Source: Aplysia californica
Lineage: Eukaryota
Assembly: GCF_000002075.1 (NCBI RefSeq)
Contig: NW_004797444.1
Coordinates: forward strand, 180,831-244,830
DNA length: 64,000 bases
Direction of reading: 5' to 3'
Shown: positions 21,901 to 24,900 of the stretch, one piece after another
How the letters are laid out: each line of letters opens with the position of its first letter
Position numbering within the stretch: the first letter of the stretch is position 1
The notes under the pieces: model-generated
Told to the model about the DNA's origin: nothing
What the model saw: the letters and a program-made list of their open reading frames with translations, nothing else
The model's database searches: none
Translations under genes and position numbers: made by a program

Positions 21901-24900
21901 CTTTGCTTCCACCCTTAGTCCCATCCACCAATGCCACCCCTCACTGCCATCATGTAACAATGATTCAAGGAACTCTTTTTTCGGCTGGCCGTACGATCAG
22001 GGTGGCAGGCACTGGTCAATCTAATTTCACACCTCTGGCTTCTAGCTACCCAGGAACGTTTTTGTAGTGGCTCGCTACTCGAACACTCTCACGGGAAGTC
22101 GTGAGATTTCACACCCACACTACACTGACCATCTGCATCACTCAGGGCTCACATGATGGGGTAACATCGAGGATACCAGAACTAAAGATTTATTTTGGTA
22201 GCCTCGGGTAACATCTACCCCCAAATTGCACCCCTACTCCCCTTCCTCGCCCAGCGGCATGGCCATAGTGTGAAGGTTAGAGCCGGTGGAACCAAACTTG
22301 TGAGTTTTGTTTCAAATCAGGGCTGAGCGGGCAAAGCATTTTCCGTCTTATTAGACAGGTGAAACCCTCGGAAGGGAGCGGATTTTTCTTTCCGTTTCCA
22401 CGTTGGACAGGTTTCCGTTTTATACAGGTAAATAAAGAGTAATATATCAAGGGGGGAGCTGGGAGATTCCATTTAGACAGGTTTCCGTTTTATACCGGTT
22501 TCCGTTAAGGCAGGTTCGACTGTACATGAAATATGTCACATTGTGGTGAAATCAGGTGCTCATCAAAATTATGGTATCAACGAAACCAACATTTTTTTGC
22601 CCACTGGACAATTTTTATTGAGTTTTTTGATTTGGGCTGAACACCTTTAATGTCTATGTCACATTCAAGTAGGGATTTTATTGAAAAGTGTTGATCAAAG
22701 ACACAAAATAATGTAAATTTTGCACTTAAAGACTACAGCTTTGATAATCACCAAATTTTGGCAGCCATTTTCTCGCTAATCTTACCTCTGACACCAGGCA
22801 ATCCCCACCTCCTTCAATCGCAAGTTACTTCTGTTCAAGAAGGGGTTTGTTTTTTTCATCAAAAGCAAGAAAACTGAACATGCTTTATGTTTATTACCAA
22901 CAATTCCATACACCCAAAAATTGATGAACGCGTGATTCTGCTGTGTTGTGACACACAACAAACTTTTTATTACAGAAAGAAAGCCTTACCCATCCAGCTG
23001 CTGTTCCACGGCTTCTAGGTCAGCGATGCTCTGGGACATGTCCTCGCGGGTGACCGCCTCACCCACCACAGCCTTGAGGGTGGCAGTGATGCGCTCGGAG
23101 AAGGTCTTGTAGTCCGACAGGTAGGCACGGATGCTGCCCGGCAGAACCTCCTCTCCCTGGTCCTGCTCTTCCAACTGTGGGACAAGAGAGGTTAGTTTTA
23201 GTTATAGTAAGAGTTTTATGGCACCTGCAACACAATAAGGTTGCATAAGTGCCAAAGATTAGAGGTGTTACAAGAAGAGAGTAACATACACAAAAAAGGA
23301 GGGGAGATAGAGACAATAGATTTTTTATAGGTAAGAAGGAACAAACCACACCAAAGCACCCGCCAACCACCCACACATGAAAGGTTGAGTGAGAAAAAAA
23401 CAACATGAACTACAAAAAATTTGTTGTTCTTCTTTCAGTGCGAGATCTGAAATGTATTGATAACCAAGGCATAGTCACCACCAACTTTTCTGCTTTGATA
23501 CTCTTTAAAAAAAACCCATGTATTACCCTGATCTTTTTCGACTGCCTATCTATCAAAGTTCGCTCAAAGGTTATTCTTTGTCTACACCTGCCATTTTTTT
23601 GCCTTCATTTTTCCCAGTGAAGCAAGATGTTCAAGGCTTTGGTGTCAATTCAGATGTTTTAGAAACTGTTTGTCTTCTTCTCATTTGTTTTTATTAGATA
23701 TTCTTACTTTAGCTGTTTCAAAAAGACCCATGGGAATGGTGCGAATGACTATGTCTCAAAGAAAGGATGAACCCTACAGGGAAGACCCTGACCTGATCAT
23801 TCTGAAAATTGCATCTGATTATAAAATCCTTTCATCGAACGATGTAGGCAGATGTCACTACACATAACATCATCATCATGTGCCAAATTTGCTATTGACA
23901 TCGGCAATCACAGCTCTTCAATCATTCTTTTGCTTGAATGCTCAAAAAAAATAATTACATAATCCTGATCTTTCCATTTCACTCATCTATTTAGGCTCTC
24001 AAAGTACGTTACTCTGGGTGTACCCCTGCCTCATATCTCTTCAATTTTGCTCTCGCTAGATGTTCAAGGCCTTTATGTCTATTCAAGTGTCCCAGAAACA
24101 GCATTTGTCTTTTCCCAATTGTTTTTATCAGGGAGCAGCCCACATGGGCCTCTTCAAGTACTACCTCATTTGATTTTTTTCCTTAAAAGAAATTCCCAGC
24201 AGTCTTCTAAGAAACCATATTTTTGTTGCTTCTATTCTATTTTCCGACACAAAACAGCATTACTGTAAATAAGATAATAATCACTGTTTTTTTACAGCTT
24301 TATCAATTCCGTTAGCTTGTATTAAGTTCTAAAAATAAGATATAATAGGTACATATTAGTCATTCTAACCAAGGGGCAGAGAGAGCAAATCATCAGAGTA
24401 CTGGTGATCAACAACAGTAACAATGGGAGGGCATTGAAATAGAAAACCCTTGTGTTCCTTTGTTATGAAAATCTACAGCTGCTGGTGTGCAAGAGGGAAC
24501 TTGGAAATAAATAGCATATGGAGCTGTCTCGTAGCAGGAAAAGATTAAATTCATATGCTTTTAAAATTCCCCTCAAAGGTGGCAGCAGAATACAGCCAAA
24601 TAATGTCGTAAAAATTCAGATTCATAAGGCACGTAAAAAAAAATTTTTAAACAGTAAAAGAGAAGGACAAGGAGCCAATCATATACAGACACTTTTCAGT
24701 CAAAGCCTGAAAGTGGAGGAACCATATTTGAAGCTGGTATTATGGTGCTCTCTGTCGATGAGTACATGGCATACCTGTAGACACAGACACATCTGTGTGT
24801 ATGTACAAGAGAAAAGCTCAGCCATGACAGTCCAACATTACCTACCTTTGCCAAGGTCTTGAGAATAGAGCGGATATCAGACATCAGCTTGTGGTGGGTG

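Follow-up and report, generated by a model that had tools for sequence, protein, structure and literature searches.

In the available part of their study, Zhang et al. (2011, PMC3088655) describe a depletion of human and mouse SINEs closer than 100 bp to exons, and ascribe the sense bias of the human elements at 20–200 bp to selection against antisense cryptic acceptors. The retroposon considered here, family A, resembles the mammalian SINEs of that part in having an orientation bias near exons. Unlike them, its tails are enriched about fivefold at 15–35 nt from acceptors, and its copies lie in sense at about 8:1 across introns. The exonized inverted Alus in the accessible sections of Mercer et al. 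(2015, PMC4315302) are a case of a retroposon supplying a CUAAY-type branch motif, as is proposed for family A. The Alu lies in antisense and makes a new exon with its own acceptor, whereas family A lies in sense before a pre-existing constitutive host acceptor, and its branch point is read from sequence.

Mollusc SINEs and LP-SINEs, as far as the accessible text of PMC4758252 and PMC11481361 describes them, are like family A short, TSD-flanked, ended by a tandem repeat and provided with a shared 3' module; they accumulate in genes as family A does, and some have no tRNA head. The same portions report LINE tails and promoter-swapped heads, and no splice-site position or strand analysis was found in them. 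A further parallel is given by the snoRNA retroposons, which, in the available part of Weber (2006, PMC1687206), are promoter-less, TSD-flanked and often in sense within introns, as family A is, and which, together with snoRTE, are processed from host introns (PMC1687206, PMC4233971, both in part). Family A differs from both in having neither a snoRNA fold nor an Rfam match, and only the head of one relative, F4, is H/ACA-like. No earlier description of an excess of SINE tails at branch positions was found in open-access full text, which is weak evidence of absence.

The insertion in an SMG1 intron

The window, i.e., the whole 64,000-nt stretch of Aplysia californica DNA that was analysed, carries on its minus strand the 3' portion of an SMG1 gene, as identified by Pfam kinase and FATC matches, named SMG1 matches (the one of best identity being a gastropod sequence) and a tblastn exon map. 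The focal intron (24845–23175, 1671 nt) holds the following features, where negative numbers count nucleotides upstream of the exon.

24846–24944, minus strand: upstream SMG1 exon, 99 nt, into which the loose end of the run X11 mRNA contig runs
23389–23393, minus strand: displaced native branch-like motif CTCAC with its A at 23390 (TCAC, 2.0-fold enriched), formerly at −23 by reconstruction and now at −216
23375–23386, minus strand: upstream copy of the target-site duplication (TSD), 12 bp by sequence, ending exactly where the family 5' start begins
23194–23374, minus strand: family A retroposon copy, 181 nt, SINE-like, in sense to SMG1, 87.6% identical to the family majority
23220–23253, minus strand: 3' stem-loop common to three sister families; the consensus fold has two-sided change in 2 of 9 pairs and no net covariation
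23225–23227, minus strand: candidate cryptic acceptor CAG (−51), the sole AG inside the element, scoring 5.5 against 6.5 for the real acceptor
23194–23208, minus strand: (ACTAAA)n-type tail with candidate branch As at 23198/23199 (−24/−25), 23202 (TAAC, −28) and 23208 (TTAC, −34)
23191–23196, minus strand: junction ACTAAC with a candidate branch A at 23192 (−18), TAAC being the most enriched tetramer
23182–23193, minus strand: downstream copy of the TSD, 12 bp (−19 to −8), consisting of the pyrimidine tract plus AA
23175–23176, minus strand: acceptor AG, used in the spliced contigs of runs X17 and X11
22990–23174, minus strand: SMG1 coding exon 3' of the insertion, 185 nt, with ends taken from mRNA contigs

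The focal acceptor (23175/23174) has a matrix score about the median for predicted acceptors and is in use, since two mRNA contigs splice there: in that of run X17, 99 letters separate the exon 23174–22990 from the piece listed next, and the upstream exon is likewise 99 nt long, and in that of run X11 the downstream exon is joined directly to the upstream one. Raw polyA reads (runs X21 and X22) had a depth of about 1 on the focal exon and were swamped by other copies. A candidate SMG1 exon at 36092–36032 was dropped because its phase was broken. Family A tails also lie directly upstream of two further SMG1 acceptors (window 52174–52237 and 35669–35815, minus strand).

Two 12-mers with two mismatches (10/12) had been proposed by the first-pass annotation as a duplication at 23375–23386 and 23182–23193, and both are present there. 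Such a match at the exact offset occurred in 60 of 133 real copies against 47 of 16,882 mismatched flank pairs (0.28%). Of the 133 full-length copies, 58 had a strong TSD, compared with 6 of 300 shuffled flank pairs, and 12 bp was the modal length (21/58). The focal duplication is real, and the element's tail stops 19 nt short of the acceptor. Given its 87.6% identity to the family majority, the copy is probably old and fixed. Four DNA-type runs from other samples (X5, X6, X8 and X9) carry the insertion junction, and no empty site was seen in their contigs, which show presence only and leave many joints undisplayed. The pre-insertion state described below is a reconstruction from the TSD.

In 740 element-free acceptors, the tetramers most enriched at −18 to −35 were TAAC (2.1-fold) and TCAC (2.0-fold); CAAC (1.4-fold) and TCAA (1.05-fold) were weaker. 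The annotation had placed the pre-insertion branch site at CTCAAC, within a TSD said to cover both the branch-A region and the pyrimidine tract. The tract is covered as claimed, but CTCAAC scores at most 1.4-fold, and the best motif, TCAC at the reconstructed −23 (2.0-fold), lies just outside, four bases upstream of the TSD. This TCAC was likely the former branch site, and the original motif would probably have been displaced by 193 bases, not duplicated. Two other copies with resolved TSDs displaced TAAC or TGAC likewise.

A canonical ACTAAC, formerly credited to the tail, does exist at 23196–23191, but only its ACT is tail-derived; the host contributed AAC, and with it the putative branch A, as part of the TSD. 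This A at −18 falls just beyond the short edge of the 19–37 nt range, within which 90% of human branch points lie according to the accessible sections of Mercer et al. (2015, PMC4315302). A variant form of the tail produces the TAAC at −28, which lies within the broad peak of this genome and is as good a candidate as the host-derived A. Around the focal site, AGs occur only at −236, −51 and −1, and the stretch from −50 to −20 is wholly element-derived. A branch point selects the first AG downstream of it, and for a branch at −216 that AG would be the CAG at −51. With the old AG still used and an AG at −51, the branch should lie downstream of −51, and the working branch point is likely to be in the tail or at its junction. 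To this extent we infer, from the AG at −51 and the used acceptor, that the tail rebuilt the branch point as had been suggested, the −18 A being only one of several candidates. Use of the −51 CAG, which would lengthen the SMG1 mRNA by 50 nt containing stops, was not seen in the two mRNA contigs (X17 and X11); the stop-containing SMG1 mRNA that it would give is a possible route of NMD feedback.

Family A, its sister families and their orientation

Copies of family A are about 175–190 nt long and begin at a constant 5' position; the body is rich in pyrimidines, and the 3' part consists of a stem-loop and the (ACTAAA)n tail. The family gave 444 matches in 1.31 Mb, has about 26 copies in the window, and its exact 22-nt tail occurs 4381 times genome-wide. 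The family is short, non-coding, dispersed and of high copy number, with TSDs of variable length and a repeat tail, as SINEs are. Its sense strand contains a single AG and its antisense strand 24. The stem-loop is likely a reverse-transcriptase recognition signal. Neither ARAGORN nor Rfam found a tRNA or other match for the head; no CORE, MESC or tRNA head was detected, nor a Pol III head of the tRNA, 7SL or 5S kind with its A and B boxes, and the element has an internal T6 run. Overall, family A behaves like a SINE but lacks the Pol III head. Rfam gave no snoRNA match, and no two-hairpin H/ACA fold was found. Family A is also unlike an introner, since it takes up 181 nt of an intron of 1671 nt and neither of its ends coincides with a splice site, and unlike an exonized Alu, as the host AG is used and use of the element's own CAG was not seen.

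In 30 reverse-transcriptase loci, a large share of them ending short of the 3' terminus, no LINE end matched the family A tail. Apart from an inserted copy, the head gave only chance-level matches of 14–21 nt in these loci, which rarely reach the LINE 5' end. Two marker motifs of the family were absent from four supplement files of PMC4758252; a name for family A may already exist. The tail is common to F3, F4 and F7, one of these three sister families being tRNA-headed. The sisters and a comparison element are located in the window as follows.

29851–30006, minus strand: F4 (fuller copies L106, L078 and L120), with pyrimidine middle and tail as in family A; 31:3 sense
25813–25950, 34715–34818 and 41963–42200, minus strand: F3, with a G-rich head and the stem-loop common with family A; 60:9 sense
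398–919 (plus strand), 3679–4171 and 10052–10528 (minus strand): tRNA-Gly-headed SINE, about 515 nt, with a family A-like 3' stem-loop; 21:9 sense
2248–2714, 4413–4830 and 22531–22955: MITE, about 450 nt, with long terminal inverted repeats and no strand bias

The F4 head folds in an H/ACA-like manner (ANANNA hinge, hairpin and ACA) with no Rfam match, and F4 may be a snoRNA-derived retroposon, as its modelled fold suggests.

Intronic copies of family A were in sense in 234 of 264 cases (234:30), a bias equally strong in young (72:5) and old (51:7) copies. The families with no tRNA head stood at 234:30, 60:9 and 31:3, whereas the bias was weaker in F7 (21:9) and absent from the tRNA-like F5 (29:32). 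The density of sense copies was 49 per 100 kb in the introns of SMG1 and 17.5 per 100 kb in those of the dyneins. The dynein value is roughly double that of a single strand in blocks where no gene was predicted, and the same holds for the MITE, whereas antisense copies were depleted to 2.9 per 100 kb (the gene-free baseline being only 20 copies). Tail subfamilies were clustered by gene, with 10 of 10 in SMG1 belonging to type 1 and 8 of 10 in locus C209 to type 2 (p = 0.002 in dyneins alone, L061–L180). No rare variants were shared among the copies of one gene, and an origin as local daughter copies within genes was rejected on this ground. Copies often insert in or beside others of the same orientation, including serially at one acceptor (e.g., L003, L024, L038, L217 and L218). 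The sense strand of introns is strongly T-over-A skewed, by about 0.04–0.14 in 19 of 20 dynein blocks and more in SMG1 (window 8000–64000).

Position of tails relative to acceptors

Positions were counted in 20 dynein heavy-chain regions, picked by Pfam match independently of the element, and in SMG1 and 16 other loci. One dynein extension block had no dynein homology; the dynein loci C30, C90 and C2481 stood outside the dynein set, and 44 of 60 other loci, having no confident gene call, were excluded from the intron counts. Of the 38 SMG1 exons used for training, the exon-prediction model recovered 36, and its predictions in the dyneins stayed in phase. Introns containing N were excluded from the position tests, and the expectation was uniform placement within each intron.

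Over all sets, 24 of 182 sense family A tails ended 15–35 nt from an acceptor, against 4.8 expected. The dyneins contributed 13/81 (2.2 expected), the replicate blocks a further 6/38 (0.9 expected) and SMG1 2/14 (0.4 expected), and the 16 other loci alone gave a non-significant 3/49 (1.2 expected). The excess held in full-length copies (11/106 against 2.7), at homology-supported acceptors (10/63 against 1.4), with strict exons (18/148 against 3.9) and in single-copy introns (23/118 against 3.4), and was strongest in orphan tails (5/26 against 0.6). It peaked 20–29 nt before the acceptor and faded to about 90 nt, with an excess across 35–120 nt as well. A family A tail occupied the branch window in 21 of 836 introns tested (2.5%). 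The pile-up of tails upstream of acceptors is a property of the family, and the pattern to which the first-pass annotation had alluded holds in independent genes; the description "exactly at a branch point" was too strong, as the tail excess spans from about 20 to 90 nt before acceptors.

Genome-wide, the exact 22-nt tails were followed by an acceptor motif 100 times at 15–35 nt and 92 times at 40–60 nt, against 66 at 100–120 nt and 63 at 250–270 nt (100 against 66, p = 0.010). Of 20 near matches sampled, six had a predicted exon start, and three of those six matched Pfam above the cut-off. Given the sensitivity of the motif (211/930), about 3–4% of exact-tail copies lie near acceptors.

At the opposite end of introns, sense heads were not enriched at donors (13/140 against 10.6). 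Antisense tails were over-represented at donors in the gene sets (7/28 against 2.0); the genome-wide tail-to-donor test, which is of low power, gave no excess (43 against 44). Among the other families, F3, which carries an internal acceptor-like CAG, had 1 of 43 at 15–35 nt from acceptors against 1.0 expected and 4 of 6 antisense tails near donors against 0.5, and the small family F6 was in excess at acceptors (3/15 against 0.5). The MITE had 4/83 at acceptors (15–35 nt, 2.1 expected) and 15/83 against 6.3 at donors, i.e., 2.4-fold within 60 nt. At 15–35 nt, the contrast of family A with F3 (p = 0.055) and with the MITE (p = 0.051) was borderline.

A TAAC at the junction was found in 7 of 24 near copies against 9 of 107 far ones (p = 0.011). 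Near copies were more diverged (median identity 85.0 against 87.5, p = 0.02), and the enrichment tended to rise with age (6/44 against 29/105, p = 0.09). YTNAY was no commoner in near tails (15/24) than at other acceptors (467/756), and their conservation was hardly raised (0.864 against 0.858).

Origin of the pile-up and its meaning

An important question is whether the tails are sent to acceptors, retained there or merely left there. We lean, with moderate confidence, to retention on top of a general excess: a sense retroposon landed between the likely old branch point and the pyrimidine tract, its AG-free tail likely supplies the branch A, and the pile-up combines a broad excess with a selective filter. 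Family A would have inserted by target-primed reverse transcription, to which the 12-bp duplication, the repeat tail and the 3' stem-loop point, with the target cut at −19. The insertion would have shifted TCAC from −23 to −216 and placed an AG between motif and acceptor. Splicing to the old AG did survive, as the mRNA contigs show, probably because the last 50 nt are free of AG and offer TAAC at −28 and −18. At the level of the family, a first layer would be a broad excess 20–90 nt before exons, already seen in little-diverged copies, and a second a filter that keeps the branch-like tail, in contrast to most inserts, in the branch window and purges the AG-rich antisense copies. The general excess is also needed because tolerance alone cannot exceed parity, and it is seen elsewhere in the MITEs at donors (15/83 against 6.3) and in the exact-tail copies, flat across 15–60 nt. 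The filter is favoured by the single AG in sense against 24 in antisense, the unenriched F3 and the commoner junction TAAC near acceptors, as well as by the somewhat greater age of near copies and the strongest enrichment being in orphan tails. A purely branch-related reading is weakened by the antisense tails at donors, the parity of YTNAY and of conservation and the borderline contrasts with F3 and the MITE. The excess at 35–120 nt also counts against it, because no branch role is needed there.

It is possible, if on balance unlikely, that insertion is instead coupled to transcription or splicing, with a promoter-less element that is made from host introns, stays close to spliceosomes or paused polymerase by virtue of its pyrimidine body and branch-like tail, and lands in sense before acceptors where the template strand is cut. 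The element has no tRNA or Rfam head and an internal T6, the families with no tRNA head are the most sense-biased, and the sense bias is already full in young copies (72:5). The exact-tail copies are already in excess genome-wide (100 and 92 against 66 and 63), sense copies are dense in SMG1 introns (49 per 100 kb), subfamilies are clustered by gene, and target sequence predicts neither the pile-up nor the strand bias. However, the orientation bias goes with AG and T/A asymmetry as well, and the sense density in dyneins is about twice the gene-free per-strand density, as for the MITE, with the antisense copies depleted. Moreover, rare variants are not shared among the copies of a single gene, and the enrichment tends upward with age (p = 0.09). 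A stronger form of this coupling, which we regard as doubtful, would make family A an intron-hosted retroposon with its tail a branch-point mimic, freed when the intron is spliced, its RNA ending 3' at the branch, and steered back in sense upstream of 3' splice sites.

We give rather little credence to the tail being a bystander, with a host A at −18/−19 or a distal branch in use and the pile-up reflecting neutral survival beside exons, shielded from deletion. The −18 A is host-derived, conservation of the tails is barely raised, and MITEs are over-represented near donors (15/83 against 6.3); in the available part of PMC11481361, survival bias accounts for the older genic SINEs of bivalves. 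Shielding would be symmetric, yet heads at donors are unenriched (13/140 against 10.6) and tails at acceptors are fivefold in excess. The host context (CAAC 1.4-fold, TCAA 1.05-fold) is weaker than the junction-made TAAC, and a distal branch point would, by the first-AG rule, first reach the CAG at −51. Finally, priming directed by sequence, in which the (ACTAAA)n tail anneals to TAA/CTAAC-like DNA and so prefers branch points, has in its favour a slight T/AA preference at TSD starts (the focal TSD begins AAC) and the TAAC peak at −25 to −29, but is rejected as the sole cause and highly improbable altogether, as a matrix from 88 TSD-defined sites predicts 0.98–1.08-fold at 20–50 nt, hence no acceptor excess, and a sense:antisense ratio of 0.79, hence no sense bias.

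Taken alone, the insertion at the focal site has been tolerated and has likely brought a replacement for the branch point; single insertions of this kind are ordinary. The noteworthy part is the enrichment across the family, which places SINE-like tails where mammalian SINEs are purged. If the tails carry the branch adenosine, existing exons would routinely draw core splice signals from a mobile element, whose copies would be dated natural experiments in branch-point turnover. If the targeting is true, splicing or transcription would be guiding a retroposon, and in the case of the intron-hosted mimic, the branch point would have been rewritten in a few percent of this genome's introns.
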